64,000 nt of DNA from Acidobacteriota bacterium (GTDB lineage: Bacteria > Acidobacteriota > UBA890 > WLXD01): NCBI GenBank assembly GCA_963666055.2, contig CAXWPH010000015.1:2080001-2144000 (forward strand). Reading direction: 5' to 3'. Of the stretch, positions 28,814 through 48,135 are shown piece after piece. The position numbers and the translations under genes are program-made. Positions within the stretch are counted from its first letter, which is position 1; every line of letters begins with the position of its first letter. The notes under the pieces are model-generated. The model saw only the letters and a list, made by a program, of their open reading frames with translations. It was not told where the DNA came from and made no database searches.

Positions 28814-29113
28814 GTGGACATTGGCCCCGTCATCGCCTCGGCGGTCTGGGGTACCTTCAACCTGAGCGCTGCGAAGGCCAAGATCCGCAGCTGCAATCGT
28901 CGCGTCCACAGCTTCCTGTTCGAGGACAACGAGGCGAACGGCGATCTCGCCTATCTACAGGGCGTCGTTCTCAAGTGGGTACGCCACGACAGGTCGGATG
29001 CCGCCACCTATAGCATCAGCAAGTACGTGAACTTCAAGTTTATTCGGAGCGATACCGCTGATTGCCGTAGCGCATGTCCTGTCGGGCGTTTCCTCTACGG
29101 GCCCAGGCCGTAG
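28814..29113 (+). CDS. Hypothetical protein, probably a 5'-truncated fragment
   Basis: Coding-like composition; no recognisable family or RBS. Confidence 0.3.
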   Translation: MDIGPVIASAVWGTFNLSAAKAKIRSCNRRVHSFLFEDNEANGDLAYLQGVVLKWVRHDRSDAATYSISKYVNFKFIRSDTADCRSACPVGRFLYGPRP

Positions 29114-29367
29114 TGGGCCGGTGGGCGCAGTTTGGTCGCAGTTTCGGAGACCAGCGAAGATGCTAAGGATGGCCCCGACTGCGCCCGATGTGCGACCGAA
29201 ACCTCGAGCCTTCCAATCGTTGCTGGTGTTCGGGTCCTCGAGCACGTAGGGGAAGCCCGCGAGCCGGCTCTCGTGCCGAAGAGCCGTGTAGATTCACGAC
29301 AGCCTGCGGAGTACTCCGGGAGCTTGCGAATGCCCCTTCCCCCGCCGAGTCAACAGGAGGTTCTTGA

Positions 29368-29679
29368 CTAGGTATCCAGCCAGTCGGCTATCTGTTGAAG
29401 CATGCCGCACTTCTCGCGGAACTCCTCAACAGTTCGGAGTGTGCTCCCGAAGTCATCATCCAGATCCCACTCGTAAGTGGTGACTGCGAACCCTCGGTGC
29501 ACCCTATCCGCCTGGCTGAAGATCAATCGCTTCAGATCGCTGCACTCCTCGCTGAATGCCCACCCCCCCCAGCCTTGGCTCGGGGGGAATGCTGGTGCGT
29601 TGTAGTTGTTGCAACCGGCTGTGGCTAGTAAGCCAACGGCTACTGCCACGAGGCCGAGGCGGCTTCTTTGGATTCGCAT
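29368..29679 (-). CDS. Small putative lipoprotein
   Basis: AAGGAGG RBS; signal peptide ending ATAGC. Confidence 0.6.
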   Translation of the reverse strand: MRIQRSRLGLVAVAVGLLATAGCNNYNAPAFPPSQGWGGWAFSEECSDLKRLIFSQADRVHRGFAVTTYEWDLDDDFGSTLRTVEEFREKCGMLQQIADWLDT

Positions 29680-29989
29680 GGACTGCCTCCTTTGCCGACT
29701 AGAGAGTTCTAAGCGGCGCCTTTGTTACAGGACGCAAATTGCAGAAGCAAGAATTGCCCTGGTCCGCCGTGCATGACCCTCGGGCCAGGGTCTATCGCCG
29801 GCGGCCCAGAACATGCATGCATGCGGCTCTCAGGGGTGGTCTAGACGGCTGGTCCGCCCTGCTCGTCGCTCACCTACGATACGTATGGGTCGAGGCGACT
29901 CTCCGCCATCCCGGGACTCCTACTACCCCCCCCCCCCCCCCCCCCCCCCGGCACCCTGTCGTGCGGCGCTTGCACATCGGTTCCGGAAT

Positions 29990-30078
29990 CCCCGCTCTCC
30001 TGCCCGTCTCACCAGTACATGGACGAGCGCGACCCCTTTGAGCGCCTGCTACGCGACCTTACGCCTGATCCGGTAGAG
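29990..30078 (+). repeat. Repeat module A copy 1 (MDERDP micro-ORF; also 33625-33713 and 35729-35803)
   Basis: CCGTCTCACCAnnnCATGGACGARCGSGACCCC...ACGCCTGAnCCGRTAGAG in three places; copy 1 gives a 25-aa ORF at 30019-30096. Confidence 0.9.
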
Positions 30079-30109
30079 AGAGAACTGACGCCGTAGCGCC
30101 TGCCTCCCG

Positions 30110-30138
30110 TGGACCCCCGCCCACCCCAGCGATAGGCT
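30110..30138 (+). promoter_or_regulatory. Sigma70-like promoter in repeat module B (second copy 34109-34137)
   Basis: TGGACC-N17-TAGGCT conserved in both copies while the spacer varies. Confidence 0.55.
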
Positions 30139-30171
30139 TCAGGCGCTCACCCACCCTGCCTCGGGAGCGCC

Positions 30172-32880
30172 ATGGAACCCGGTAGCAAGCTAGGCCACTA
30201 CGAGATCACCGAGCAGCTCGGTGCTGGCGGTATGGGAGAGGTGTACCTGGCGCAGGACACGCGCCTGGGCCGCAAGGTGGCCATCAAGGTGCTGCCCGCC
30301 GAGTTTGCCTCTGACCCCGAGCGCCTCGCCCGCTTCGAGCAGGAGGCTCGTGCCGCCGCCGCCCTGAACCATCCGCACATCGCGGTCGTTCACGATATCG
30401 GCACCGAAGGCGACACCCACTTCATGGTGCAGGAGTACCTGGAGGGAGACACGCTTCGGGAGCCGCTGGGCAAGGGTGCTCTGCCGCTCAAGAAGGCGCT
30501 CGGGTTGGCCACCGAGATCGCCGAGGCGCTGGCCGCAGCCCACGCCGCCGGGATCATCCACAGGGATCTGAAGCCGGAGAACATCTTCGTCACCAAGGAG
30601 GGGCACGCCAAGGTGCTGGACTTCGGCCTGGCGAAGCTGACCGAGGTGGCGGTGACGGGATCGCCCGACGATTTCACGCATTCACCCACAGCGATGGGCA
30701 CTGCCGCCGGCCAGATGATGGGCACTGCCGGCTATATGGCCCCGGAGCAAGTGGAGGGCTCCCCAGAGATCGACCATCGGGCCGATCTGTTCGCCTTCGG
30801 CTGCGTGCTGTACGAGATGGTCGCGGGAACGCGACCCTTCGGTGGCAGGAACGTCGCCGAGGTCCTCCATCATCTGCTCAACAGCGAGCCCGAGCCGGTG
30901 AGCGACACGCTACCACTGAAGCTGCAATGGAGCCTCGACAAGTGCCTGGCGAAGGAGCCCGCTCGGCGCTACCAGCATGCCGATGATGTGGTGGTGGACC
31001 TGAAGGCGTTGGCCGGTGAGGTGGAGTCGAGTGCGCCACTGCCGGTCAGCGGAGAGGCACCGACAACCCCTGTCGCCGTGGAAACGGCTCGCGGCATCCC
31101 CTGGAAGCCGACAGCCTCGATAGCCGTGGCCAGCGTCCTTGTGGGGGCTTTGGGAGTTTGGATCACGACCCCGTCGCCGCCAGAGCCGCTCATCACGCGC
31201 TTCGACATCGACTATCCACCAGAGACTACTTTCGATGCCGCTTCCACCCTGGGCGTTGCGATCTCACCCGATGGCAGCTCGGTGGTATTCAACGCCAACC
31301 GGCAGCTTTGGCTCCGAGCGATTGACGACCTCGTAGCCACACTCATCCGTGGCACCGAGGATGCCAGAGTGCCGTTCTTTTCCCCCGATGGCCAGCAGCT
31401 CGGTTTCTGGTCGGGCAGCCTGTCAGATGCCGACGGGCAGATGAAGAGAGTTTCGATCACCGGTGGTGCGCCAGTGTTGCTGGGGCCAGCGCCTGTGCGT
31501 CCTTACGGGGCGAGTTGGGCAGAGGACGGCTACATCTACTTCGGGCAGGGTGCCGGAGGGATCTTGCGTGTCTCAGACAACGGCGGTGAACCACAGGTCG
31601 TCGTTCAGATGGAAGAAGGCGAGCAGGCCCACGGGCCACAACTTCTTCCCGGTGGCGAGTGGTTGCTGTTTACGCTGCGGAGCGCTTCCGGCTCCTGGAA
31701 CGATGCGAGCATTGTTGCGCAGCCGGTGTCCGGCGGCGATCGCGAGGTGCTGGTGGCCGGAGGGACCGATGGCCGCTACGTGCCCACCGGCCACATCGTC
31801 TATTCCCTCGAACGGAACCTTTTTGCGGTGCCCTTCGATGCAGACAACGTCGAGGTTACCGGGGGATCGGTGTCCATCGTCGAGGGGGTCCAACAAGCCG
31901 GTCTCACGGGAGCAGCCCAGTACGCCTTCTCGGATCGCGGTGGGTTGGTGTACATGCCGGATGCTACTAGCGGTGGTTTCCAACTCGTCTGGGTGGATCG
32001 TGACGGCCAAGTCGAGCTGCCGCCCTTCGAGCCGCGTTCGTTTTTCTACTTGGACCTGTCGCCGGATGGGCAGCACATCGCGCTCGACATCCTTGGAGAT
32101 GATGGAAAGTGGGACATCTGGATCTACGAGGTCGAACGAGGAGGCAGCGGGGTGCTGCTGACCACGGAGGGCAACAACGACACCCCTGTTTGGTCGCCCG
32201 ATGGAGAGTGGGTTTTCTTCGCGTCGGATCGGAATGGCAATTTCGACATCTGGAAGCGCCGGGCTGACTGGAGTCTCGCCGCCGAGCTGGTGTTGGATGC
32301 AGAGGCTAACGTGTGGCCGGAGTCGATCTCGGACGACGGTGAGATGCTTCTGTTTGACAGCGGGCTCCTCGGGGAGCCCCTCGACGTGGGGGTCCTGGCT
32401 CTCGATACAGGTGATGCGGAAATGCTCGTCGCTACCGCCGTCAATGAGCTATCGGGCAGTTTCTCGCCGGACGGTCGCTTCTTCGCCTTTGCTTCGAATG
32501 AGACCGGGCAAATGGAGGTGTACGTGCGGGAGGTATCGAGCGGGCGGACATTTTCGGTCTCAACCAGTACCCGTGGTGGTGCTTCCCCTCGCTGGTCGCG
32601 GGATGGAAGGGAGATTTACTACGTCTCCTCCAACAGCTCAGGCATCCTCGTTGCGGAAGTGGATTTGGAGTCGTTTTCCGCATCCGACCCTGTCGAAGTC
32701 TCGGACATCGTCCTCCGTAGCGAGGGCAACTTCGATGTCACCGCCGATGGCCAGAAGTTCCTGGTGACGGTGCCCGCTGGTACTGATGAGACTGGGGGCA
32801 CGGCACCCAACCCACGACTCAATGTCGTCCTCAACTGGTTCGAGGAATTGAACCGGCTAGTGCCGACGGGCGGCTCCTGA
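30172..32880 (+). CDS. Ser/Thr protein kinase with TM segment and PD40/TolB-like beta-propellers
   Basis: [26 protein letters not shown]; repeated [FW]SPDG; NWFEEL tail. Confidence 0.95.
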
Positions 32881-33630
32881 TGGTCGGCAAGACGCTCGGC
32901 CACTACGAGATCCTCGCCCCGCTTGGTGAAGGCGGGATGGGGCAGGTGTACCGAGCACGCGACACGACGCTGGATCGTGATGTCGCCATCAAGGTGCTGC
33001 CGGAGGACTTCGCCAGTGATGCCAACCGGCTGGCTCGCTTCGAGCGCGAGGCCAAGCTCCTCGCCTCGCTGAACCACCCCAACATCGCCACCATTCATGG
33101 GTTCGATGAATCGGACGGTGTGCGCTTCATCGCCATGGAGTTGGTCGAGGGGCAGAGCCTCGCCGAGCGTATTGAAGCCTCCGGTCGCATAGATGTCGAT
33201 GAAGCACTGGAGATCGCCCGCCGGATCGCACTGGCGTTGGAAGCTGCGCACGAGGCTGGTGTCATCCACCGCGATCTCAAGCCCGCCAACGTGCAGGTCG
33301 CACCCGATGGCACCGTGAAGGTGCTCGACTTCGGTCTGGCTAAAGCCTACGCAGCGGATGGCAGCGAACCGTCGTCCGACTTGAGCCATTCGCCCACGAT
33401 GATGGCCGCCACAGGCACGGGCGTGATCATGGGGACGGCTCCCTACATGTGCCCGGAACAGGCGCGGGGACAGCCAGTCGATAAACGTAGCGACATCTGG
33501 TCGTTCGGATGTGTGCTGTACGAGATGCTGGTGGGTAAGAGAGCGTTCGACGGTAAGACCGTCAGCGACACCATGGCGGCGATTCTCAAGGAGGAGCCGG
33601 ATTGGGCATCGCTTCCGGCGGCCACCCCGC
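32880..33630 (+). pseudogene. Truncated Ser/Thr kinase (kinase domain only), reading into repeat module A
   Basis: HRDLKPAN, DFG, DIWSFG; homology stops at EPDWASLPAATP, exactly where module A starts. Confidence 0.85.
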
Positions 33631-33713
33631 TCTCCTGCCCGTCTCACCAGTGCATGGACGAACGCGACCCCTACGTGCGCCTGCTACGCGAACTCACGCC
33701 TGATCCGGTAGAG
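33625..33713 (+). repeat. Repeat module A copy 2
   Basis: Near-identical to 29990-30078. Confidence 0.9.
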
Positions 33714-33810
33714 CGTGCGCTGGTGCAGATCGAAGCCGATACGGCGCTAGCGGAAGTGCGACTCGCGGCTCTCGCGTGTCGGCGTGGCGAGTGTGCGACG
33801 ATTAGGAGTT

Positions 33811-34134
33811 GTGGGGAGGTGGGAGCTTGTGAGAGATGCGAAGGCAGCGGCGATAATGCGGCTGGCTGCCGACCGAATCATCTACAACCAGAAGCAGCAC
33901 CAAGGCCGCGTTTACCGCTGGACGATCTGCGAGAATTGTGGCCGGCTCTGGCACACGCTCGACACCGTCCGCAACGTCATCAAGCGGAATGGCTGCTCAC
34001 GTTGTCTGTGCCCCGCCTTGCCCAGGCTGCCGCCTAAGAAGATTCGCCCTCGTACCCCCGGGATGCCGGCCGGCAGACAATCTGACGCCGGAGAGACGCT
34101 CCCTCCCGTGGACCCTCGCGTGCCCCAGCGATAG
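33811..34134 (+). CDS. Small CxxC-CxxC Zn-finger protein (module C copy 1)
   Basis: WTICENCGRLW...GCSRCL; AGGAG before GTG; paralog at 36586. Confidence 0.6.
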   Translation: MGRWELVRDAKAAAIMRLAADRIIYNQKQHQGRVYRWTICENCGRLWHTLDTVRNVIKRNGCSRCLCPALPRLPPKKIRPRTPGMPAGRQSDAGETLPPVDPRVPQR

Positions 34135-34145
34135 GCTTCATGCGC

Positions 34146-34412
34146 TCACCCACCCGCCAGCGGTGTCCAGGCTCGGCAGATCCGTTGTCGGCTCTTACCG
34201 TATGAGTAGGCGGACAGGAAGAAGTCTGAGCTGTTCACGGCCTCATCTCTCATGCGACGGTACTCGGTGTCGTCGTTGGCTGCGTGCCGTCCAGCCAGTA
34301 GCCGCCATTTGAACAACTCGTCGGCCAGTCGATCTACCACGACGCCCAGGAGATACGTGGCGACGAGACCCGGCGCGATGAGCCACACCGGCGGGCTGAG
34401 CATCGGCAACAT
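34146..34412 (-). pseudogene. Fragment of a membrane protein
   Basis: Hydrophobic helices and YLLGVVVDRLAD; ends on running into module B. Confidence 0.4.
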
Positions 34413-34496
34413 GGGCGGAAAGAGGGCTACGACGATGGCAACGACAAGCCCACCCGCTCCAGGCGAGTCAGCACGGCATTGGCGCTGAACGCTGCT

Positions 34497-34700
34497 CTAT
34501 GGATCGGCGCGCATGCGGCTCTGACGGCGCCGCCACCGACGTCGCGCCGTCGCTTGCTTCGCACGCCGGCGCTCGCCCGGCTTTACGAAGTGCTGGTGGC
34601 GCCTGGCATCGCGGAGAATGTTCTCTCGCTGCACGACACGACGAAACCGCCGCAGGGCGTGTTCGATCGATTCGCCGTCCTCGATGCGGACGAAAGCCAT
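34497..34700 (-). CDS. rpsU: 30S ribosomal protein bS21
   Basis: MAFVRIEDGESIEHALRRFRRVVQRENILRDARRHQHFVKPGERRRAK matches the bS21 pattern; 67 aa. Confidence 0.85.
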   Translation of the reverse strand: MAFVRIEDGESIEHALRRFRRVVQRENILRDARRHQHFVKPGERRRAKQATARRRWRRRQSRMRADP

Positions 34701-35006
34701 GGAATGGCTGCTCATGTTGTCTGTGCCCCGCCGCGCCTGCTCGACGACAAGCGGAGGGGGCAACGGAAACCAGCTCGGGGTGGGCTGCATCCTCGAGCAT
34801 GCGAGGCCCCTCAGCACGAGACGTGCCATCGACGCTGCTCTTCGCGGGCCCGGCAGCGAATCGGCTACTGCCCAGCCCAACAGCGGCGGTACTTGCTCCT
34901 CACGCTCGTCCCGCGCCGAGAGGCAACCACATCCTAGACCCCGGCACCCAACCGGGGTAGTGCCTAGCGAACTGCGCCCTTCTTCGTGCCAACCGTCGGC
35001 TCGAGC

Positions 35007-35105
35007 CAGACCAAGCTCGGGCACCGCACGCCGGCCTCGCTGCTGGCCTACCTGGGGATCACGCGAGAAGACGTGCGGAAGGCCAGCGAGCAGATCGAAC
35101 TCTGA
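35007..35105 (+). pseudogene. C-terminal remnant of a tyrosine recombinase (second copy 39725-39802)
   Basis: Manual translation QTKLGHRTPASLLAYLGITREDVRKASEQIEL*: LGH-x8-Y catalytic spacing. Confidence 0.65.
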
Positions 35106-35628
35106 GCATCCTCGTCACGGCCCTCCCCGGGGCTCTTTGGATTTGCCCTACGTGTCGGGCTCGATGACGACACGCGCACCAGCAATTCCGGCCAAGGTGA
35201 TCAGGTGCTCCAGCGTGGGTGCCCGATTGCCTCTACACCACCCGTGCAGCGACGCCGTGGACCTGATGCCGTAGTGGCTCATGTCCTTCCTAAACGCCGT
35301 GTAGCTCCTCCCATTCTTCAATGCCATAGCCAGGTGCCGAGCGTCTTCTGCACTTTCAAGGACCAGCGGCTCAGTCAGCTTGCCTAGTCCGCCGGGGCGC
35401 GTCGTCTCGTGCATCGGTATGACGTTCCAGGGAGTAAGAAGGAACACCCACTGATTGTTACACGAGTAGCATTACACAGCTACCGCTAGCCCATGAGGAA
35501 GATTCGGTCGGGCCTGCGTTCAGCGAGCGGGAAACAGCGCCGTGCTGCGGGAGATCGGGGCGTGCCTGAGCAGAGAGATACTGGCGATCTTGTCGCAGGA
35601 ACTGCGGGATCAGGAGTGACGTGTGTGG
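35027..35628 (+). repeat. ~600-bp direct repeat module E copy 1 (copy 2 at 39724-40322)
   Basis: Colinear high similarity including identical stretches such as GCCAGCGAGCAGATCGAACTCTGAGCATCCTCGTCACGGCCCTCCCCGGGGCTCTTTGG. Confidence 0.95.
35148..35414 (-). CDS. XRE-like HTH protein (copy 1)
   Basis: SLHGWCRGNRAPTLEHLITLA is an XRE-type C-terminal motif; conserved in copy 2. Confidence 0.65.
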   Translation of the reverse strand: MHETTRPGGLGKLTEPLVLESAEDARHLAMALKNGRSYTAFRKDMSHYGIRSTASLHGWCRGNRAPTLEHLITLAGIAGARVVIEPDT

Positions 35629-35728
35629 GTGGCTACCGAGACCTCTCCACCATCGGGTCCCATCTAATGCCCCCCCCCCCCCCCCCCCCCCCGGGGGTAT
35701 GGGTCGCCAGGGAATCGTCGCACTCGTG

Positions 35729-35803
35729 GCCGTCTCACCAAGGCATGGACGAACGGGACCCCTTCGACCGCCAGCTACGCGACCTTACGCCTGAGCCGAT
35801 AGA
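35729..35803 (+). repeat. Repeat module A copy 3
   Basis: Encodes MDERDPFDRQLRDLTPEPIE. Confidence 0.85.
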
Positions 35804-35809
35804 GGGGTC

Positions 35810-36402
35810 TTATCCGTCGCCCGTTCCCGGCCCGCTCGATTGCTCGGCTCCATTGCCAGTTTCCGCGCCCCCGCCATCGCTCGAGGCATCCGGCTCCGGC
35901 GGTGCTTCATCTTCGTCCTCCAACGGAATCGGAGCCTCGCTATCCGGGGGCTCGATGTCAGCGGAATCGGAACTCCCATCGGCACGTTGTCCTGTGCCCA
36001 TCCAGGCGTAGACAGCGCCCAGGATTGCGCCGTAGACCAGATGACCCATGAGGCTGGGCATCATGCTGCCGGCGGCCTCTAGGTTCCAGTTGACACCCAT
36101 GCCCATCCCCATGAACAAGGGCATGAGCGTGAGCGGGCCCAACAACCACCAGATCACGCCGTAGCCGAGCCCATACCCCAAGCCGCTTCCCATCCCGCTC
36201 ACCATCGAGCCCAAGACGATGCCAAACGCGGCTCCGATGATGGCACTGTTAACCATGTGGACGAGAAAGCCTGCGAAAGCCGATGGAGACTCAACCATGC
36301 TGCCGATCATTGGCAGCATCCCCATCATTCCCATCATGGCTCCGAACACCACGCCCCGGCCAGGCCGCCGTAGATGCCCTTCTTGATGTTGTCCGCGTTC
36401 AT
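35810..36402 (-). CDS. Met/Gly-rich membrane protein, frameshifted near 36355
   Basis: GGAGG + ATG at 36402 gives MNADNIKKGIYGGLAG, joining VVFGAMMGMMGM after adding one G; ...LVH.....IG..FG and GHLVYG motifs. Confidence 0.7.
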
Positions 36403-36585
36403 CCGAAGCACCTCCCTTGGATGGTTAATTAACAGCCGGCGGATTCCGTCGCCCGTGAGAGTGATCCAAAGACCCCCACGCGAACTTATGAAGTTTGCCT
36501 GCCCTCTGTCAACGGAACGGCTATCGCCAAGCGTATGCGGCGTCCTTCCCGACCAGCGTGGCGGGGTGTGCGACGATTAGGGGTT

Positions 36586-36825
36586 ATGGGTGAGCGGTGG
36601 CAGCTTACGAGGGATCCGAGGGCAGCGGCGATAATGCGCCTGGCTGACGACCGGATCGTCTACAAGCAGAACCAGCACCCAGCCCGCGACTACGTGTGGA
36701 CGATCTGCGACGCCTGTGGTCGGCTCTGGTACACGCTCGAGATCGTCCGCACCATCATCAAGCGCGATGGCTGCTCACGTTGTCTGTACCCTGGCGGTCG
36801 CAAGCGCGATCAGACTGCCGCCTAA
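36586..36825 (+). CDS. Small CxxC-CxxC Zn-finger protein (module C copy 2)
   Basis: WTICDACGRLW...GCSRCL. Confidence 0.6.
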   Translation: MGERWQLTRDPRAAAIMRLADDRIVYKQNQHPARDYVWTICDACGRLWYTLEIVRTIIKRDGCSRCLYPGGRKRDQTAA

Positions 36826-37311
36826 GATCCCGTAGGGCCTCGGTCCTCAGCACACCGCGTGCGTGCGAAACCCCTCAACGCGAGACGAGCGGTTCCTCAC
36901 CATCGGGTCCCATCTGTACTCCCCCACCGGGGGTGCGTCGCGTACGTTGCTTCGCGAAGCGACAGCAGGGGAGCGAGCCGATCTGCTGCTGCATTGACGC
37001 ATCTCGGCTCAGGTAGAAGTGAACAGAATATAGGGGTGCGGCGCAGGGGCTTGGGCAAGTCCGTGTCGGGGTCGCCCCCAACGACTTTAGCGTCAGATTT
37101 CGATCTTCTCGCTGGCCTTTCTCACGTCCTGGGTGCGTGGTATCTGCTGTAGACACGGATGGCGATTCCTTCACTTACGGCAGGGCCGAGCAGCTTGTCT
37201 TCATGTCGTGGCGACGATTCCTTCTACCTTCCGGTGGCGCTCATGCAGGCACACCGAAATGACCCCCACCACCTACCGAGCCCGATGAGAGGCGAGCCCT
37301 AGAAGGGCCCG

Positions 37312-37752
37312 CTACGTGAGTCGCTCGGGGTCAGGAGACAGGCTCATGGGCCGCGCCTCCACGACCATGAGTAGGGTCTCAAACTCTACAGCCACGACGA
37401 AGCTGCGTGCTCCTTCTCCGGTCCGCAACACCCTTCCCTTCAGCGTCTGTCGCGGGATCTCCAGCGTCCGGAGGGTGTACCCGCACTGCGGGCACTTGCT
37501 GTCGGGGTCCAGAGGAAGAGGATGTCTCTCTTCGAGGATCTGCACGACACAACGAGTCCCTTCGGCCAGCCTCTCGTTGATCTGCGCCAGCATGCCACCA
37601 CGGCTCACGTTGACCATGTGACCGTGCAGCGGTGCCCGACGGTTCATCCTGAGCTCGATCGGGATGGAGACGTCGGCTCGCGGATGCTCGCGACGAGTAG
37701 AATTACTCCAACCGCTAATGTGCATGGGCGTGCCCGTTCCTTTTCCCACCAT
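37312..37752 (-). CDS. PilZ-domain protein
   Basis: RREHPR (RxxxR) and NVSRGG (D/NxSxxG) c-di-GMP motifs, VAVEF strand. Confidence 0.75.
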   Translation of the reverse strand: MVGKGTGTPMHISGWSNSTRREHPRADVSIPIELRMNRRAPLHGHMVNVSRGGMLAQINERLAEGTRCVVQILEERHPLPLDPDSKCPQCGYTLRTLEIPRQTLKGRVLRTGEGARSFVVAVEFETLLMVVEARPMSLSPDPERLT

Positions 37753-38264
37753 GCTTCGCTGGTACTAATTGCTCAAGCGCGGGCTCAATGAGACTCAGCT
37801 TCTATGCTGTGAAACGTATCGAACACGTTGGATCAGTTCAACACATTGTTCATATGCCCAGCTAATCTGGATTGTTCAACATTAATCAATAGTAACTTCC
37901 AAGGGACGAATAGGGTCACGAAGGCCGTGCCCTTTCCCTCGGGCAGGCCCAAGGCGCATCAGATCGCCGGCCTACCCCCAAGGAGACGGCATGCCAGCCT
38001 CTCCGAGGCCATCATCCTGAGCGGCCGCACGCGGTTCTCGTAATCTCCTTGAGCTCCTCGATCTCGGGTGGCCCGGCTGCTCTCCCGTGGTGAGAGCCGA
38101 TCTATTCCGCTAGGCTGAGCAGCCTTGCGGAGCACCGCCGACGGTAGGCCGGATCAGTGATGACCGCAGACCCCTTCCCGGACCTGCGAGCGAAAGGGAG
38201 CAAGAACGAAACATGACTGCGGTCGCTTCGTAGTTGGCGACCGAAGGACTAGCGGGAGGTAGCA

Positions 38265-38498
38265 ATGGCACTCATTCAGTGTTGGGGTTGCGGGCATCAA
38301 GTGTCGGATAAGGAGAAGAGGTGCGCCGGTTGTGGGACCCCGATCGCCAAAGAGGAACCCATCGCGGCGCCCGTTGAGACCACCGCTGGGCCGCGCGACA
38401 CGGACAATGCGTCCGAGCAAAAAACCCCGCACGCTCTTTCCGCGAGACTCGCCAAGCGTCTAGCAGGGCTCCGCGCCAAGGCCCGCAAGAGCGAATGA
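38265..38498 (+). CDS. Zinc-ribbon protein
   Basis: GGGAGG RBS; MALIQCWGCGHQVSD....CAGCG. Confidence 0.75.
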   Translation: MALIQCWGCGHQVSDKEKRCAGCGTPIAKEEPIAAPVETTAGPRDTDNASEQKTPHALSARLAKRLAGLRAKARKSE

Positions 38499-38540
38499 CC
38501 CCGACCACCCACCGAGTCCCCGAGTGAGAGGCCGCCGCGC

Positions 38541-38870
38541 ATGAGCAAGCCGAGCTTCGTCGCTGGCGGGCACTACTCGGCCTACGTGGAGGTTCGTCAC
38601 CTCAAGCGGATGAACGACCTCGATGGCGCCAAGGAGCTTCTCCTGCGCCTGGTGGACGCCACAGAGGCCGAGGCCGCCGCCGAGGGCGAAGGCTGCGGGG
38701 TTGATCCGTGGTACTACGAGCAGCTTGCAATGATCTACCGGAAGAAGAAGCAGCCAGCCGATGAGCTCGCGATCCTCGAGCGGCACGAACGACAACCGAA
38801 GGCCCCTGGGACGGTTTCAGAGAGGCTGGCCAAGCGCCTGGCCGGCCTGCGACCCAAGGCGGACGAGTGA
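38541..38870 (+). CDS. Hypothetical helical (TPR-like) protein
   Basis: PWYYEQLAMIYRK...ELAILER. Confidence 0.6.
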   Translation: MSKPSFVAGGHYSAYVEVRHLKRMNDLDGAKELLLRLVDATEAEAAAEGEGCGVDPWYYEQLAMIYRKKKQPADELAILERHERQPKAPGTVSERLAKRLAGLRPKADE

Positions 38871-38940
38871 GAGGCCGTTCCGCCGCCACCCCGCGCCCTG
38901 TCGCCTACCCCCGCTGCCAGTTCGGCTCCTACCTCGGCGA

Positions 38941-39057
38941 GATCAGCGTTTCGTGATGTTCCCAGGCAGCAACGAGAGCCAGACCGGCAGCGGCCATGTG
39001 ACGCTGATCACCAACTGGTTCGACGAGCTGAAGCGGCTAGTGCCGACGGACCCGTAG
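38941..39057 (+). pseudogene. C-terminal remnant of a beta-propeller Ser/Thr kinase
   Basis: DQRFVM...TLITNWFDELKRLVPTDP* matches the tail of kinase 30172-32880 ([18 protein letters not shown]). Confidence 0.75.
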
Positions 39058-39423
39058 CGCCCTCAGCCGAGTCTCGCGAGCCACCCAGCGACCTCCGATT
39101 CCGCTCGTCCCCAATGCCCGAGCAGACACCAGTCATATGTCTTCTTAAGAGGCCGGAGAAGGCCCGCTAAGGGCCGCCGGCAGCCTCTACGTGTTCGGCC
39201 ACGAAATGTGCGCCGTGGGCGTTAGAAGGGCGCTGAGGGGGGCTGGGTCGTCCTTACTTCCAGGCTCCCTCGAACGGCGGCTGGGGAAACATGAGGTGCG
39301 CTGCCCTCCGGCGTTTGTTCGTCGAAAACTCGTTGTTTCCTCAGAACTTCTTCAGGACTCCTGGCCCTAGAGTTGGCACCCTCTGGGGGTTCTTTGGACG
39401 AGTCTGCAAAGGAGGTCAGAGGT

Positions 39424-39654
39424 ATGCAGAAGCGAGTGGCAACACTAGTCGCCGTGCTGATGCTCTTGGCGTTGGTGACGCTGATCGTGCCGACCACAGC
39501 AACAGCAGGACCGCCCCAAGTGATCATCGTGCAGCCGGGCGAGCCGATGCCGGAAATCTTGTTTACCGGCGGCGATGGTCAATCACCTCCGCCAATCATC
39601 CAAATCGTAGATGAAGACGGCAACATAGTCAGGCTCATCCAAATACGACCTTAG
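39424..39654 (+). CDS. Small secreted protein
   Basis: AAGGAGG RBS; signal peptide ending ATA. Confidence 0.6.
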   Translation: MQKRVATLVAVLMLLALVTLIVPTTATAGPPQVIIVQPGEPMPEILFTGGDGQSPPPIIQIVDEDGNIVRLIQIRP

Positions 39655-39723
39655 CTACGGAACCCTGAGCCTGGTGCCGGGAGGGAAGCTGTCTCCCCAC
39701 TGGCAGGAGCGATATCGCGATGA

Positions 39724-40322
39724 CACGCCTGCGTCGCTACTCGCCTATCTGGGGATCACCCGAGAGGACGTTAGGAAGGCCAGCGAGCAGATCGAACTCT
39801 GAGCATCCTCGTCACGGCCCTCCCCGGGGCTCTTTGGCGTGCGCGCCGTCGGGCTCGATGACGACACGCGCTCCCGCAATTCCGGCCAACGTGATCAGGT
39901 GCTCCAGCGTGGGCACTCGGTTACCTCTACACCACCCGTGCAGGCTGGCTGTCGACCTGATGCCGTGCGCAGCCATGTCCTTCCTGAACGCCGTGTAGCT
40001 CCTGCCATTCTTCAGCGCCATAGCCAGGTGCCGAGCGTCTTCTGCACTTTCGAGGAGCAGCGGCTCAGTCAGCTTGCCTAGTCCATCGGAGTGCTTCGTC
40101 TCGTGCATCGGTATGACGTTCCAGGGAGTAAGAAGGAACACCCACTGATTATTACACGAGTTACATTACACGCCTACCGTTAGCCCACGAGGAAGATTCG
40201 GTCGGCCGGCGTTCAGCGAGCGGGAAACAGCGCCGTGCTGCGGGATATCAGGGCGTGTCTGAGCAGGCAGATTACTGGCGATCTTGTCGGGCGGGCTGGG
40301 GGACCAGGGGTGACGTGTGTGT
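39724..40322 (+). repeat. Direct repeat module E copy 2
   Basis: See copy 1. Confidence 0.95.
39812..40108 (-). CDS. XRE-like HTH protein (copy 2)
   Basis: Paralog of 35148-35414. Confidence 0.65.
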   Translation of the reverse strand: MHETKHSDGLGKLTEPLLLESAEDARHLAMALKNGRSYTAFRKDMAAHGIRSTASLHGWCRGNRVPTLEHLITLAGIAGARVVIEPDGAHAKEPRGGP

Positions 40323-40389
40323 GGGGCGGCATGCGGCGACTACAAGGGGGACGAATTCGACGCGCCGCCGGCACAGGGACGGGCCGTCA

Positions 40390-40839
40390 TCACTTTGCCG
40401 GGTACCTCTTCCGAACGACGCTGGCAAGGCTTACGCCGATCTCAAGATCGTCCGCGTGCAAGCCGCGGATCTCGGAGTGCGAAGCTGATCCAGGCTGAGG
40501 GTCGTGCATCGTCTGGACATCCAATTGATTGCTTTCTGCAAGGTTGCGCTCCAGCGTGCCGACCCTCAACAAGGCCAAGACGGCGCTAACGCGGCGCGTT
40601 ATCCCCTGGCCGTCGAGATCCTGGCGGATGCTCTCGACTTTTGCATCGTCATCGGAGAGCGTGCTGTAGTACTCAAGCCAATTGACCGAGAGACAACCTT
40701 GGTCCTGCGAACGAGGCATGAATGCACCCGGACCGGGCTTGCCGTCTTTCTCAAGGTGGCTTCCACCGCAGTAACGAATCACATGATCCTTCGACGGTAT
40801 TCTGCCTGCCGAAGGGACAACGTTGGTGGACTCGATCAC
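40390..40839 (-). CDS. Hypothetical protein, possible ADP-ribosyltransferase-fold toxin
   Basis: GTGA overlap with upstream gene; VIRY...AF...LSVNW...SHSEI pattern; fold is inferred. Confidence 0.55.
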   Translation of the reverse strand: MIESTNVVPSAGRIPSKDHVIRYCGGSHLEKDGKPGPGAFMPRSQDQGCLSVNWLEYYSTLSDDDAKVESIRQDLDGQGITRRVSAVLALLRVGTLERNLAESNQLDVQTMHDPQPGSASHSEIRGLHADDLEIGVSLASVVRKRYPAK

Positions 40840-42328: not shown

Positions 42329-42646
42329 TCACCTGGCAGATCCCGCAAGCCGGTAAAGGACCTCGTCTGCCTCGCGACGGGCGTCGTTGTCATCGTTTAC
42401 TCGTTCCATCCAGTCCAGCAAATCGCCCCACAGGACACGGACCTTGCCCCCGCCTGGCGGTCGACGCGCCGGGAGCGGACGGCTGGGTCGGCGTGTCCAC
42501 TTGTGTACGGTCGACGGGTCGCATTCACAAAGCTGGGCGATCCGCGCCACCGGCAGGAGCGATTGGCGCGACACGGGAGGAGGTCCGTCAAGGTCGTCGG
42601 CGAGAGATCGGAGACCGTCTGCAAGCCGCTTGAATTCCGTGCTCAA
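42329..42646 (-). CDS. Excisionase-like HTH DNA-binding protein
   Basis: LLPVARIAQLCECDPSTVHKW......LPARR..GG.VRV...DL.DW; TTG start after GAGGGG. Confidence 0.7.
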   Translation of the reverse strand: MSTEFKRLADGLRSLADDLDGPPPVSRQSLLPVARIAQLCECDPSTVHKWTRRPSRPLPARRPPGGGKVRVLWGDLLDWMERVNDDNDARREADEVLYRLAGSAR

Positions 42647-42719
42647 CAGCCACCCCTCGTTGATTGAGGCCCAGCTGATCTGGCGGGCTGCTCTCCGGAC
42701 GCACCGGCGTGCAAGGTTC

Positions 42720-43400
42720 TCACGATGCTGGGCGCAATCTGTGGTCAGGTGCGATGACTTCAACGCAACGGCAAACGTGCTTGATCCTCGACATGAGCCG
42801 CGTCCCGATGTAGCCGACGAGCTGCTCCTGGCTCAAGTTCGTTGTCATCATTACTGGGCTCGCTTGCTCGTACCGAAGACCCAACAAGTCGGTCAGCTTT
42901 TCGAATTTCCAGTCGGTCGTTCGCTGCGCCCCGACTTCATCGAGGACGAGAACATCCACGCCGAGGAGTTCGTTGAATACTTCCGTCTCCGACTCGATCA
43001 CGCTTGGCTGCATCGCGTCCTTGAGCCGTCGGAAGAGTGCCGGTGTCGAGATGAACCTTCCCGAAGCGCCCTTCTCGATGAGAGCATGTAGCGTACTTAC
43101 CAAGAGGTGCGTCTTGCCCCCGCCCGGTGGGCCGTGAAGCAACAATCCACGGTCCACACCCGAACCGTAGCTGTCGACTACTTCGAGACAGGCTGCGTGC
43201 GCTGATCTAGCGGATTCGGATACGCCCGTGTCGAAATTGTCGAACTGCATCTGCGCATACATCGGTGGGATGCCGGCAGCGTGGCAACGCCGCGCAGCGA
43301 TGGCAAGCAGACGGCATTCGCAGCGCCTGACAGGCTGGCCAGCCGATTCGAGACCCACAAAGCCGGTGTCGCCGCATTTTCGACAAGTGTCGTCGCTCAT
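42720..43400 (-). CDS. DnaC/IstB-like ATPase (helicase loader)
   Basis: CxxC..CxC Zn site; GPPGGGKTHL; LVLDEVG; MTTNL; RLMSRI. Confidence 0.9.
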   Translation of the reverse strand: MSDDTCRKCGDTGFVGLESAGQPVRRCECRLLAIAARRCHAAGIPPMYAQMQFDNFDTGVSESARSAHAACLEVVDSYGSGVDRGLLLHGPPGGGKTHLLVSTLHALIEKGASGRFISTPALFRRLKDAMQPSVIESETEVFNELLGVDVLVLDEVGAQRTTDWKFEKLTDLLGLRYEQASPVMMTTNLSQEQLVGYIGTRLMSRIKHVCRCVEVIAPDHRLRPAS

Positions 43401-44152
43401 GTGTAGTACTCGCGTGAGATGGTGAGGCCATCCGGGCCCTGAACTGGTAAAGCGGGTTCGATCTCGTCCTCCCAACGGCGCTGGTTCAGCCAGGAGGCGG
43501 GGCGCGGAACGTAGCGTCCGCTGTCTCTTTGCCATTCCCTCTGTTTGCTCTGCTGGGCGACGGCCTCGAGCAGGTCAACTATGGGGGGACGTAGCTCGGC
43601 AGTCTTGCCCCACGCCTTCTGCGCTGCGCCCCTCCCCTGCCTGCGCGGGTACGAGCTCCAGAACCGATCAAAGCCTGAACTTTGATTCCGCGCACCAAGA
43701 GAGTCTTTCTTCTTTCGTCTCGGTTCTTTCTTCTTACTTAGGGTGCCGCCGGTAGGGCCGTCGGTCGTTACCTCGGTAGTGCCGTCGGTGGTGCCGTCGG
43801 TCTGCCGTTGGTCCTCATCGACTGCCTGGAATCCCAAGAAGTTACAGACCGTTACGAGGTTACCGCGGTTTGCCCTCGGCTCGGTCGTCAGCATCCCCGC
43901 TGCGGCGAGCTTGTCGGCCGCTCGGCGGAGCTGCTTCACGGTCAATCCGGTGGTGTCGGCCATTTCGCGCCAACACGCGAAGTACTGGCCCGGCTGTAGC
44001 ACTAGAATCTGCCCGGCTACATCCCAAGGAGTCGGTTTGTACGCGGCGCGTTCAATCGAGTAGCGGAAGAAGAGGCTGGCCGCCGCATCGCCACGCAACA
44101 CCGGGTTCTGAATGATGCGGCGGTGCATCTTCACCCAGCCACCATGGCTCAA
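43397..44152 (-). CDS. Phage-type replication initiator
   Basis: GWVKMHR N-terminus, HTH, FDRFWSSYPRR and PASWLNQRRWEDE C-terminus; coupled to the DnaC-like gene. Confidence 0.85.
   Translation of the reverse strand: MSHGGWVKMHRRIIQNPVLRGDAAASLFFRYSIERAAYKPTPWDVAGQILVLQPGQYFACWREMADTTGLTVKQLRRAADKLAAAGMLTTEPRANRGNLVTVCNFLGFQAVDEDQRQTDGTTDGTTEVTTDGPTGGTLSKKKEPRRKKKDSLGARNQSSGFDRFWSSYPRRQGRGAAQKAWGKTAELRPPIVDLLEAVAQQSKQREWQRDSGRYVPRPASWLNQRRWEDEIEPALPVQGPDGLTISREYYT
43743..43802. repeat. Five tandem 12-bp repeats (candidate iterons)
   Basis: GTGCCGCCGGTA GGGCCGTCGGTC GTTACCTCGGTA GTGCCGTCGGTG GTGCCGTCGGTC. Confidence 0.65.
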
Positions 44153-44400
44153 GTCCCGCCGCGCCCGGCGTCAGACGATGAGAGAGGCTCGGCGTAGAAC
44201 ACCTCGCCGATCTCACGATCCAGCGCGCCAGCGATCCGAAAGGCCGATTCCAATCGCATCGCCGGACGGTGCCCGTTGGCGATGCGCGACAAAGCCGGCT
44301 CCGTGATCCCGGCCCGGTGGGCGAGTATGCGAAGGGGGGTGTTCCCTCGTAGTAGGTGGATTCGGTTAGAGATTCGAACGGCTGCTTCCAGATTCGTCAC
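44149..44400 (-). CDS. Cro-like XRE HTH regulator
   Basis: LAHRAGITEPALSRIANG...IAGAL; divergent from the cI-like gene. Confidence 0.85.
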   Translation of the reverse strand: MTNLEAAVRISNRIHLLRGNTPLRILAHRAGITEPALSRIANGHRPAMRLESAFRIAGALDREIGEVFYAEPLSSSDAGRGGT

Positions 44401-44423
44401 CGCGAGCGCCTTCCAAGTGTTGA

Positions 44424-44481
44424 TTTAAGAGTAACGATAAGCCATACTCTTAAAGCTATGACGGAATGATGATACTGTCAA
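44424..44481 (-). promoter_or_regulatory. Sigma70 promoter with overlapping palindromic operator candidate
   Basis: Minus strand TTGACA (44481-44476)-N17-TAGCTT; perfect inverted repeat TTTAAGAGTA-N11-TACTCTTAAA at 44424-44454. Confidence 0.75.
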
Positions 44482-44528
44482 GGCTAATGCCTCTTGTATC
44501 TGTGTGACGAAACAGGGAGGTTCCCGAA

Positions 44529-45086
44529 TTGCCAAGGGATTCGGCGGTTGGAAAGCGGATCAGAGAACTTCGAGGTAGCCGGACCGTGCGGGAACTCGCC
44601 GGAATGGCGCGGATGAGCCCTTCGGCGCTCTCTCGTATTGAGAACGGTCACGTGAAGCCTGAGTACGGAACGCTCGAGAAGATTGCTGGAGCGCTGAACC
44701 TCGAAGTCTCCGACATCATCGGCGCACAACCTGACCGGGTCGTATGGATGGAGGTGCCCGAGAACGCTCCACCCGAGTTCCAGGAGTTCCTGCGGGAAGC
44801 GCTCCGCAGCACGCCGTTACTGCCTGTCGATCGCCTGCTGCTGGAACACGAACTCCGGAGCTCCACGGCTCCGACGACCGTCGGCGAATGGCATATGAAA
44901 CTCGCCGATTTGCGTCGGACACCCCGTTACAACCTTATGCAACTGATTCTCGACAGCGACGCCTTTCCAGAGTCGATTTGGCCGATGGCGCTAATGATGG
45001 TCCAGACTTTGAGAGATGTTTCCACGGGGGCTATCGAGATCGGCAAGGGGGGAGCATTCGATAAGGCTACAGTCTTCCGCACTTGA
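44529..45086 (+). CDS. CI-like XRE repressor (no S24 peptidase domain recognised)
   Basis: GGGAGG RBS; VGKRIRELR...LSRIENG..P...LEKIA.AL. Confidence 0.85.
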   Translation: MPRDSAVGKRIRELRGSRTVRELAGMARMSPSALSRIENGHVKPEYGTLEKIAGALNLEVSDIIGAQPDRVVWMEVPENAPPEFQEFLREALRSTPLLPVDRLLLEHELRSSTAPTTVGEWHMKLADLRRTPRYNLMQLILDSDAFPESIWPMALMMVQTLRDVSTGAIEIGKGGAFDKATVFRT

Positions 45087-45108
45087 CGTAAGTAGCGATG
45101 AGGAGGGG

Positions 45109-45765
45109 ATGAAGGCGTACACGGTGGATCAACTCGATCGACTGTTGAGCGCCGTACCGGAGGTCTGTCCCGACACCGATCGCCGACTGCTGATCGAAAC
45201 GCTTGCCGCTTCAGCATGTCGGATCTCCGAGGTGCTTGGCCTACAGCATGATGACCTCGACAGGGTGGCGTGCGAGCTTACGGTCCGTCGTCAGTTGTAC
45301 CAGGGGCAGGAGACTACGCCGAAGGGGCGCCGCTCGAGGGTGGTATTGATGCCCGACCACTTAGTGGCTCGGTTGCGGCAGTTGCGCGTTGAGCAGGAGC
45401 AACGAGCCCTAGCTCAGGGTCGTGTCATGACGCCGTGGATGTTTCAGCAGCACAACGGTCGTCCGTTCCTCGGTGGGCCTCTGAGGGTTCGCTCTTGGAA
45501 GCGTATCGTCCGCCGCGCAGGGGTGCCCGACCACGGGTTCCACGGTCTGCGCCACACTCGCATTTCTTTGTGGATGGAGGCGGGCGTCAACCCCCGTCGC
45601 ATTGCCTCGATGGCAGGCCACCGGAACATGACGTACACGATGCAGAAGTACGGTCACGTAATCCCCGATGCCGACATGTTGGTGCACCCGGCCAAGGTGC
45701 CCTACAGAGGTCGAAGCACGGCGCGGAGCCGGGAAATGCAGTCGGGAGACCAACTAGCCCAGTAG
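45109..45765 (+). CDS. Tyrosine recombinase/integrase, catalytic domain only
   Basis: AGGAGG RBS; R (CRISE), K (TPKG), HGLRH, GH, Y (KYGH). Confidence 0.88.
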   Translation: MKAYTVDQLDRLLSAVPEVCPDTDRRLLIETLAASACRISEVLGLQHDDLDRVACELTVRRQLYQGQETTPKGRRSRVVLMPDHLVARLRQLRVEQEQRALAQGRVMTPWMFQQHNGRPFLGGPLRVRSWKRIVRRAGVPDHGFHGLRHTRISLWMEAGVNPRRIASMAGHRNMTYTMQKYGHVIPDADMLVHPAKVPYRGRSTARSREMQSGDQLAQ

Positions 45766-45861
45766 CTAGATGTGCCCCCGCTGCACCCTATATGCGACCA
45801 TCGGAAACGGGATGTCGATAGATGGTCCTCATAAGTCTTTTATGATCAGACTGTTAAGGGC

Positions 45862-48135
45862 CTAGAGCATGATCAAATACGTAAACTTCAAGATGATTGC
45901 CCGGTTCAGGGGCCGGAGCGGAGTGCCGGTGCCCCAGTCCTGGTTATAGACCAGGAATATGTCGGCGCCGGGTCGGTAGATCCAGTTGAGACGCGAGTTC
46001 AAAGTCAGCAGATCACTCGAGCTGTTGTATTGCACCAGCGTGTTCCAGAACAGGTCGGGCGAGAACGCCAGCTTGAAACGCTGCCGTAACACGCTGGCCT
46101 TAAAGGAGCCCCCGGGCAGGTCAACGTTGTTGTAGCTCCAGGCGGTCTCGGCCGACAGCAGTCGGCTCAAGCGCAGGGTCAGCGTGCTGTTGCCCATGAA
46201 GCGTGTGCCGCCGAAGAAACTGCCCTTCGTGTAGAAGCCGAAGAACGAGACCGGGCGGCTGCCATCGGTTCGCAGGAAGACGCCCACGTCGGTGAACTTG
46301 TAGTCGCCCGACGGGATGAAGATGCCGTCCTGGATCTCGAAGTCCTCGAACAGCCGTTCGAAGTTGTAGCTGGCAAAGACCGAGACACGGTCGCCGGCGC
46401 GGGTGTCGAAGCCGAAGAAACGAAAGGTGGAGTCGACGGTCTCGACCGTTCCATCCGACAGCGTGACAACCCCGGTGCGCTGACTGAAGGTCAAGTTGCG
46501 CACCCCGAGGTTGTTTGCAGGGCGGGGCTCGAAGTCGACGTTGTAGTCATAGCGGCGGATTCCGTCGCGCAGCAGGAATCCCATCTCCGGTCGGAAGTTG
46601 TCGCGAATCTCGGTAATGCTGGCGCGCGCCCTCAAGACGCGACCGCGGTAGTTGAAGCCAGCGCCGCCAGCCCAATCGGTGACCGCGTCGCTGCCGAGCT
46701 CCTTGTCGCGGCTGGCAGCGAAGAAGCCCGTAAGGTTCACACGGCGCGAGGGGTTGAAGTCGACATCGATGCCGGCGACGCGGTTCCACTGGTCGCCGCT
46801 AACCTGCTTGTTGGTGTAGATGGCACCGATGCTGGATCGCTCACCGATGTTGCGCTTGACTCTCGCAACGCCCCAGTTTGTCGCCCCTACATCGATGTCA
46901 CCGTCGTCGCCTAGACCGCTGACGGCGCTGGTCTGCACGTCCATCAACCCGAAGTTCCAGCCGCCGCCGCGACCCGTAAAGCGAGCTCCGACGCGAAGCG
47001 GGATGATGCCACCTTCGTCAAGGCCGATGCGCCGCGAGAAGAACATCCTCAGCAGGGGAGCTCGCATCCCCCCACCCTGTTGACGGCTCGGGCCAAAATT
47101 GAAGATGCCGGCGTTCTCGAGGAAGAACTCGCGCTTCTCGGGGAAGAACAGCGAGAACCGAGTTAGGTTTATGCGCTCGTCGTCGGCCTCTGCCTGGGCG
47201 AAGTCGGTGTTGGCTGTGAGGTCGAGCGTCATGTTGTTTGTCACGCCCCAGCGCAGCAGATCCAGACCGCCGTCGAAATCCTCGCCGGGACTGTCGGCGG
47301 GAGTCTCGAAGTCGCGTCCGCTACTGGCGACGCCGAACGGCTTGGCGCGCAGGTTGACGCCGGGCTGGAGGCCTCCCATTCCCGTCAGGTCTCCGGCCAG
47401 TGACATCCGCGGCAGGTTGGCGTCGCGCCCGACTGGCGCCCAGAGCGCCTCTTCGTTGTTGCGCCGGATGAGGCGACGGATGTTCAATCCCCAGGTGTCG
47501 TTGTCGGGGTCGAAGCGCAAGGTGGAAAACGGGATCGAGAGCTCGGCGCTCCATCCGTCCGGCGTGCGCCTCGCCGCAACGGTCCAAACGCCATCCCACT
47601 CGAAGTCCGGGTTGCGCTCGTTCTCGATGAGCGCGTCGGCGCGGGCGCCGTTCGGGTTGGTCTCGAAGTAGAACGCATTGCGTCGGTCGAGGAAGGTGTC
47701 GAGAACTATGATGATGGAGTCGTCGTTGCCGTAGGCGCCCTGGACGCCACGAAACCCACCGAACGAGCCTGAGCCGTCGCGCTGCATCTCCTTGGCGACG
47801 ATTGAACCCGGTGCGCTGTCGAAGGCCATCACCCCCACGTAGAGTCGGTCGCCGTCGCGTGCGACGCGCACCTCGGTACGTTCGGTCGCCGGCGCCCCCG
47901 TATCCGGATTGCGCTGCTCAAAGCCGGTGGCCACGGCGGCGCGTTGCCAGAACGGCTCATCGAGGTGACCGTCGAGTGCGACGCGCTCGTCGATGACTAG
48001 CGCTTCGAGCGAGCGGGAGCGCGACTGCGCGGCGGCCGGTGCGCTGGCAAGCGTCAACAGGGCGACCACCACGACGAGGCGGACCCATGGGCTCAGCGTC
48101 AGGGGCGCGCGCTGCGCGCAGGCGGCGATGTTCAT
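45862..48135 (-). CDS. DUF5916 / CBM9-like domain protein
   Basis: LDGHLDE..W, GWSAEL.IPF..LRF, DFAQAEAD...NLTRF.LFFPEKR.FFLE. Confidence 0.85.
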   Translation of the reverse strand: MNIAACAQRAPLTLSPWVRLVVVVALLTLASAPAAAQSRSRSLEALVIDERVALDGHLDEPFWQRAAVATGFEQRNPDTGAPATERTEVRVARDGDRLYVGVMAFDSAPGSIVAKEMQRDGSGSFGGFRGVQGAYGNDDSIIIVLDTFLDRRNAFYFETNPNGARADALIENERNPDFEWDGVWTVAARRTPDGWSAELSIPFSTLRFDPDNDTWGLNIRRLIRRNNEEALWAPVGRDANLPRMSLAGDLTGMGGLQPGVNLRAKPFGVASSGRDFETPADSPGEDFDGGLDLLRWGVTNNMTLDLTANTDFAQAEADDERINLTRFSLFFPEKREFFLENAGIFNFGPSRQQGGGMRAPLLRMFFSRRIGLDEGGIIPLRVGARFTGRGGGWNFGLMDVQTSAVSGLGDDGDIDVGATNWGVARVKRNIGERSSIGAIYTNKQVSGDQWNRVAGIDVDFNPSRRVNLTGFFAASRDKELGSDAVTDWAGGAGFNYRGRVLRARASITEIRDNFRPEMGFLLRDGIRRYDYNVDFEPRPANNLGVRNLTFSQRTGVVTLSDGTVETVDSTFRFFGFDTRAGDRVSVFASYNFERLFEDFEIQDGIFIPSGDYKFTDVGVFLRTDGSRPVSFFGFYTKGSFFGGTRFMGNSTLTLRLSRLLSAETAWSYNNVDLPGGSFKASVLRQRFKLAFSPDLFWNTLVQYNSSSDLLTLNSRLNWIYRPGADIFLVYNQDWGTGTPLRPLNRAIILKFTYLIML

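Follow-up and report, generated by a model that had tools for sequence, protein, structure and literature searches.

An intact gene for ribosomal protein bS21 inside a mobile island raises the question of whether the island carries an accessory paralog, acquired as cargo, that could retune the ribosomes of its host, as an earlier note on this DNA had proposed. In the window, which is the whole 64-kb stretch that was analyzed, the reading frame is indeed intact (Table 1). Its product exceeds the cut-offs of both families, with 63.4-63.8 bits against PF01165 (cut-off 27; positions 2-54 of the 55 in the model are covered) and 71.9 bits against TIGR00030 (cut-off 28.95), and it aligns end to end with solved bS21 chains. 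On PF01165 the copy scores slightly higher than the host gene (63.4 vs. 59 bits). The range first given for the gene, 34497-34732, takes in 32 nt of an upstream remnant besides the ORF. The description of its surroundings as element fragments also holds, since a second kinase gene is cut near 33625, ORF-X is cut, and the integrase consists of its catalytic half, all three being partial. No tRNA or tmRNA was found in the 64-kb window.

Table 1. Coordinates of the bS21 copy, the pieces around it and the main parts of the island (positions in the window).
Feature	Position	Strand	Remarks
bS21 (rpsU) duplicate CDS	34497..34700	-	67 aa; ATG at 34700, stop 34497-34499; frame intact
Host-derived segment	34450..34702		253 bp; 96.8% identical to G000:C11:300113-300365
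Block in common with C14	34155..34702		548 bp; ORF-X fragment and rpsU copy; G000:C14:42752-43238
ORF-X fragment	34146..34412	-	88 aa; cut at 34155; C14 form 158 aa
37-bp remnant	34701..34737	+ (opposite to bS21)	92% copy of 33986-34022
CxxC...CxxC ORF	33784..34134	+	source of the remnant; 7 further copies or fragments in the genome
Repeated leader	34103..34155	+	53 bp; promoter-like TGGACC-N17-TAGGCT at 34109-34137
Terminator-like hairpin	35119..35134	+	T-rich tail; first + strand one past the bS21 copy
Left attachment-site repeat	29007..29044		38 bp; displaced original 3' end of the DUF5916 gene
Right attachment-site repeat	45861..45898		38 bp; replacement 3' end of the DUF5916 gene
DUF5916 gene	45862-48135	-	
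Island core	42329..45765		HTH_17 protein, loader, initiator, HTH pair, integrase
DnaC-like loader	42720-43535		
Replication initiator	43397-44152		
Divergent HTH pair	44149-44400 and 44529-45086	- and +	
Tyrosine integrase	45016-45765	+	catalytic half only

The genome (G000) contains three matches to PF01165, on contigs C11 and C14 and in the window. The gene on C11 is the housekeeping rpsU; it stands head to head with purD, an orientation shared by all 10 family relatives checked. On its other side it is tail to tail with a glycosyltransferase-like gene, an arrangement kept in nine of the ten. In 11 order-level relatives, neither purD nor the glycosyltransferase-like gene was found within 1.5 kb of rpsU. 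Neither the window copy nor the C14 copy lies beside purD. A further rpsU, for which a search had been advised, thus exists, and because the syntenic gene is the one on C11, the window copy is not a lone rpsU in an arrangement shared with relatives. The possibility that the window copy is the sole rpsU of the genome is ruled out by the C11 gene beside purD.

By its sequence, the window gene is a very recent copy of the host's own rpsU. The host-derived segment runs from 2 nt 5' of the ATG through the whole CDS and 47 nt beyond it, and the CDS agrees with C11 rpsU at 197 of 204 nt (96.6%), compared with 189 of 204 nt for the nearest relative. The two proteins share 61 of 67 residues (91%), the differences being V6I, F22V, K33R, S36Q, A51T and R61S. 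An origin from a phage or from another species might be argued from the match of the copy to PHROG 21469, ribosomal protein S21 (E 1.6e-8), and from the phage-like replication genes of the island; it is nonetheless extremely improbable, as the 96.6% nucleotide identity to the host extends into non-coding flank, silent differences are missing, and the best viral relatives reach 50% over 34 residues (one locus) and 38% over 42 residues (two records). The non-coding flank in common with the host locus refutes a phage origin. A phylogeny had also been advised; a tree groups the copy with the other two of the genome, and the viral relatives found by search are distant.

In the tree, the three rpsU copies of G000 cluster (support 91/88) and the window and C14 copies are sisters (91/87), with both branches falling below the starred support level. 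The two sisters have V6I, F22V and K33R in common, as well as the same 3' joint, and both are joined to ORF-X, for which no family match was found in Pfam or PHROGs. The C14 copy takes in 453 bp of the host locus, about 200 nt of them upstream DNA, and lies within a 6-kb insertion as judged against 4 of 4 genus relatives; its CDS has suffered deletions of 26 and 35 nt that lead to a frameshift. When G002 is taken as outgroup in the alignment, 3 of the 4 upstream differences between host and C14 fall on the host side, so that either the copy is very young or its donor may have been a sister strain of the same species.

The start of the window copy had been described as abutting a Zn-finger remnant. 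A remnant of 37 bp does lie there, copied from the 3' part of a CxxC...CxxC ORF 715 bp away, while its identity as a Zn finger comes from the cysteine motif alone, as this ORF has no Pfam or PHROG match. The in-frame ATG that had been seen a few codons upstream was found as well, at 34715, five codons 5' of the ATG at 34700. It is made on the - strand by a single C-to-T difference in the remnant, a change missing from the source at 33986 and from the other close copy (on C5), and the upstream ATG is a by-product of the copied fragment. A true N-terminal extension from ATG 34715 was rejected on the ground that this ATG arose by a single change in a copied fragment. At the C14 joint (G000:C14:43438-43465), 17 nt of ORF-X were copied in from nearby; at the window joint (34701-34810), 37 nt of the CxxC ORF form a hairpin with the rpsU start. 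Locally templated short pieces of this kind at the joints suggest illegitimate or template-switching recombination.

As the copied stretch extends just 2 nt upstream of the ATG, it lacks the host gene's conserved promoter-like site and AGGA Shine-Dalgarno sequence. In the host and in 10 of 10 family relatives, TTGAC(G/C)-N17-TANNNT is found 77-136 nt upstream of rpsU, and the site is retained on the C14 copy. No promoter-like site was found in the 800 nt upstream of the window copy, where there is one TANNNT without a -35 element. The pattern used is a looser motif that was checked against the 10 relatives, as a stock promoter scan missed the host gene too, coming out blank for the window copy and for host rpsU alike. 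The 16S tail carries a normal anti-Shine-Dalgarno sequence; host rpsU has AGGA 9-13 nt before its ATG, and family relatives have AGGA, GAGG or GGA there. The claim that the window copy has no Shine-Dalgarno sequence is borne out, neither AGGA nor GGAG preceding ATG 34700. The duplex with the anti-Shine-Dalgarno sequence has an energy of -1.9 kcal/mol at ATG 34700 vs. -4.3 for host rpsU, a measure that alone fails to separate the host site from random sites, so that the argument is the conserved AGGA/GAGG. ATG 34700 lies within a predicted hairpin, with a mean unpaired probability of 0.28-0.36, which falls inside the 0.24-0.61 spanned by true rpsU genes. As a G-rich run precedes ATG 34715 (pairing at -5.6 kcal/mol, near the 25th percentile of random sites), weak initiation at that codon is possible. 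With the conserved promoter-like and ribosome-binding sequences missing, the copy is likely a silent leftover that does nothing as a protein gene now, and a probability of roughly 0.7 is assigned to its being a silent, decaying duplicate of host rpsU.

A different role would follow if the copy were read from the other strand. The only promoter-like site in 33600-35600 is the TGGACC-N17-TAGGCT of the repeated leader, on the + strand and antisense to the bS21 copy. A transcript from the leader (34103-34155) through the copy to the hairpin at 35119-35134, the first terminator-like site of that strand past the copy, would pair with host rpsU mRNA at 97% complementarity and might reduce the amount of host bS21, and a motif of this form (T(G)GAC-N17-TANNNT) occurs in 37 of the 64 leader copies in the genome. 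This reading is quite improbable. The leader match is post hoc, the motif pattern having been broadened after the leader had been inspected; the leader cuts ORF-X at 34155, which resembles another joint of the mosaic; the RNA would cover just 2 nt upstream of the host ATG and miss the Shine-Dalgarno sequence; and the arrangement is unconserved in relatives. Transcription could, moreover, take place without a selected role.

Whether a silent, decaying duplicate is also what the substitutions describe depends on how they are weighed. Between the window copy and host rpsU, 0 codons differ silently and 6 differ in the amino acid, whereas the four genus orthologs differ from the host by 8/0, 20/0, 22/1 and 28/0 silent/amino-acid codons (78/1 in total); for the window vs. 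G002, the difference in pattern has a Fisher P of 3e-4. Zero silent changes among 6-7 events has a P of 0.08-0.16 under neutrality, and an open frame surviving seven changes has a P of about 0.8, and the codon pattern of the window copy fits neutral drift. The proposed retuning of ribosomes is not supported, as the copy is without a promoter-like site, without a Shine-Dalgarno sequence and without the excess of silent changes seen in orthologs.

The kind of residues exchanged leaves more room. The window copy has kept 38 of the 40 columns that are invariant in 27 close homologs; A51T and R61S fall on columns invariant in 27 of 27, and T51 occurs in 0 of 70 wider homologs. The profile-score sum of the six changes is milder than random (P 0.008) with 5 of the 6 residues attested in the 70 homologs, a set drawn from fetched loci and proteins that is biased to high-scoring Pfam matches and includes a few members from outside the phylum. 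In the close set of 27 homologs, the BLOSUM P is 0.05, and 3 of the 6 residues are attested (P 0.02); these tests of mildness are post hoc and overlapping. For S36Q, two neighbouring bases had to change, and Q, present in 21 of 70, is the residue seen most often at that column. The amino-acid-changing rate of 7/145 is higher than the pooled flank and silent rate of 4/346 (P 0.02), although the flanks are constrained, and against its own 1/105 the P is 0.08. Two coding changes are private to C14, both silent, and A51T is private to the window and unattested. With changes milder than random, it is suggested that a promoter-bearing ancestor may have been expressed for a time and was possibly selected.

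It is thus conceivable, if unlikely, that the window gene is an expressed accessory paralog, with read-through from an island promoter allowing a start at 34715 or 34700 and a variant bS21 in the 30S subunit shifting initiation, or with an intact promoter-bearing form elsewhere. The open frame with full family scores and the mild substitutions attested in homologs would agree with this, read-through from an unrecognized promoter is possible, and precedents exist, in that Francisella has functional bS21 paralogs (PMC13374519) and phage bS21 enters ribosomes (PMC6375957). Further support comes from a metagenome run (X6) in which host-type upstream DNA and all six window alleles, with no other letters, stand on one contig. 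Either another strain carries an intact variant, or the assembler collapsed two alleles into this contig; the host allele occurs in the run on a separate short contig. Other points weigh against expression: the 800 nt upstream hold no promoter-like site, AGGA is missing, the promoter-bearing copy on C14 is broken, and no such copy occurs in the other species searched. The missing silent changes also differ from viral ribosomal-protein genes, for which a mean pN/pS of 0.10 is given by Mizuno et al. (2019; PMC6375957). A related proposal, held to be equally unlikely, is that of an accessory ribosomal protein at birth. An expressed, promoter-bearing rpsU copy would have been selected for mild changes toward other bS21 types and would survive intact in some strains (X6), while here one copy is broken and the other is promoterless and maybe read antisense.

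The extra rpsU copies could also be assembly artefacts from strain mixtures or repeats, which is very improbable. The region is repeat-rich, and at the 34702 joint the metagenome contigs carry only 30 letters of the rpsU side, one short of the 31-letter bridging rule; no contig satisfies that rule there or spans the full stretch. Contigs from three studies nevertheless agree with the window. All runs compared were contigs, those with small shares of the sequence being left out; among the 24 runs listed no RNA run appeared, which bears neither way on expression. Runs X1 and X3, from two studies, contain exact matches to 34450-34702 and to 34673-35106 without any other letters, and joints of the host, C14 and window types occur together in them; in X8, from a third study, a contig over 34519-34718 crosses the 34702 joint by 16 letters. 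One of the supporting runs may be the source sample. Database records of the C14 frameshift product and of the cut ORF-X also exist for contigs of 2.55 and 3.19 Mb, which G000 lacks, in an assembly that may stem from the same sample. In X1 and X3, the window-island contigs (33700-35300) have a depth of 7-8 vs. 3.9-4.8 for the host rpsU contig, a contig depth being no copy number and strain mixture or extra island copies being possible.

Among 40 relatives, 35 have a bS21 match, each single-copy. A count of 250 other genomes of the phylum, which takes in three unpublished ones (G046, G160 and G070), gave 245 with one bS21, two with two (G131 and G225) and three with none. Neither the 40 relatives nor the 250 genomes of the phylum yielded the window copy as a shared second rpsU. 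A DNA search of the relatives with 33600-35700 returned only ordinary rpsU and short repeat pieces, and the 26-nt joint pattern had 0 matches in metagenome contigs. A metagenome protein scan (36 of 64 parts) yielded seven loci, the five close ones lying beside purD or a glycosyltransferase gene, like ordinary rpsU. As a form of 67, 72, 97 or 110 residues, the window protein is absent from a collection of 15 billion proteins, which gene-calling choices could explain. In the partial coverage of the literature, no paper was found that describes a recent rpsU duplicate on an island in Acidobacteriota.

That the copy resides in a mobile island is confirmed by the relatives, in which the flanks meet at an empty site. 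The island runs from 29007 to 45898 (16.9 kb) and is missing at the same site in 4 of 4 genus relatives. Both attachment repeats converge on one place in G001, G002 and G004; the flanks are 0.3 kb apart in G003, and in G004 the left side is occupied by about 3 kb of other DNA. The target is formed by the last codons of the DUF5916 gene, for which a replacement C-terminus is supplied that is 82% identical, with several bases differing. The integrase matches residues 214-409 only of the 432-residue open frame of a paralog on C2, and with the N-terminal half missing the island is likely unable to move without help. Searches of 26 ORFs with Pfam and of 14 with PHROGs, which covered part of the small ORFs of the island, gave no capsid, portal or terminase family. 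At E 1e-30, 25 other genomes of the order held no close relative of the integrase, and viral contigs held none of the island DnaC or integrase.

Most of the island, about 13 kb out of 16.9 kb, is pieced together from kinase genes and fragments that recur elsewhere in the genome. Of the 64 genomic copies of the 53-bp leader, 41 are followed by the start of a Ser/Thr kinase gene, another copy in the window lies at 30100-30156, and in 20 of the 24 cases measured the promoter-like motif stands 33 nt upstream of the kinase start codon. The leader looks like a common promoter of a large kinase/beta-propeller gene expansion, which is present in the genus relatives too. Poly-C runs of about 23 bases (29927-29949 and 35669-35692) form part of a repeated module before a 98-bp repeat (at 29990, 33625 and 35716), and may reflect phase variation or a sequencing artefact. 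A 600-bp module with a 99-aa HTH-like ORF occurs at 35027-35633 and 39724-40327 and twice more elsewhere (89-91% protein identity), and the ORF had no Pfam or PHROG match. To the left of the island, a methyltransferase gene (28033-28641) is missing at the matching site of G002 and would represent an insertion or loss separate from the island.

From the sequences at hand, we infer an order of events, a role for short-homology recombination and the silence of the window copy. Host rpsU together with its promoter would first have been copied into a mosaic insertion. The inserted copy would then have changed at three to five residues, possibly while expressed. Part of that copy would next have been recopied into the island of the window, with a break 2 nt upstream of the ATG and a local fragment of 37 bp fused on there. 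Finally, the promoter-bearing copy would have been destroyed by two short-homology deletions.

The window gene is most likely of little consequence, a recent gene duplicate in a mosaic island, and it cautions that finding bS21 with an intact frame on a mobile element does not demonstrate ribosome retuning. Few genomes of the phylum carry an extra rpsU (2 of 250 others), and this single genome contains the donor, the intermediate and the end product. Should selection on an expressed copy lie behind the mild, entirely amino-acid-changing pattern, the locus would record the first steps by which mobile elements gain bS21, steps that are usually visible only long after transfer. The idea of an accessory paralog carried as cargo stands insofar as an extra bS21 does lie in the island, and falls as to cargo of the phage type, the gene being a copy of host rpsU.

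In PICI-type satellites, a tyrosine integrase lies by a divergent HTH pair, a replication initiator and a DnaC-like loader. The island resembles them in the layout of its core genes, in a repeat at the attachment site by which the target gene regains its 3' end, and in the empty site of relatives. It differs in that the integrase lacks its N-terminal half, the scanned ORFs gave no capsid or terminase match, the target is the protein-coding DUF5916 gene, and about 13 kb is mosaic. Compared with the rpsU of its own lineage, which carries a promoter-like site and a Shine-Dalgarno sequence, the window copy is without both and has amino-acid-changing differences only. With phage-encoded bS21 it shares the presence of a host-derived bS21 gene on a mobile element (PMC6375957; Chen et al., 2022, PMC9723584). 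Such genes belong mostly to lytic phages (3 of 1310 with temperate signatures), are diverged from the host (54% in HTVC008M), and have a conserved context and are expressed (PMC6375957, PMC9723584). The window copy, in contrast, has 91% identity to the host protein, is known from one genome and lies amid gene fragments, with no virion genes found among the ORFs scanned; the analogy with phage bS21 drawn in the earlier note is not supported for a near-identical host copy (197/204 nt) that occurs in no other genome searched as a shared second copy. Francisella tularensis likewise has more than one rpsU per genome, and its bS21 paralogs are 48-72% identical to each other and all enter ribosomes (PMC13374519). 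Here, by comparison, the proteins are 91% identical and the duplicate is not shared across relatives, and only one copy has both an intact frame and expression signals.
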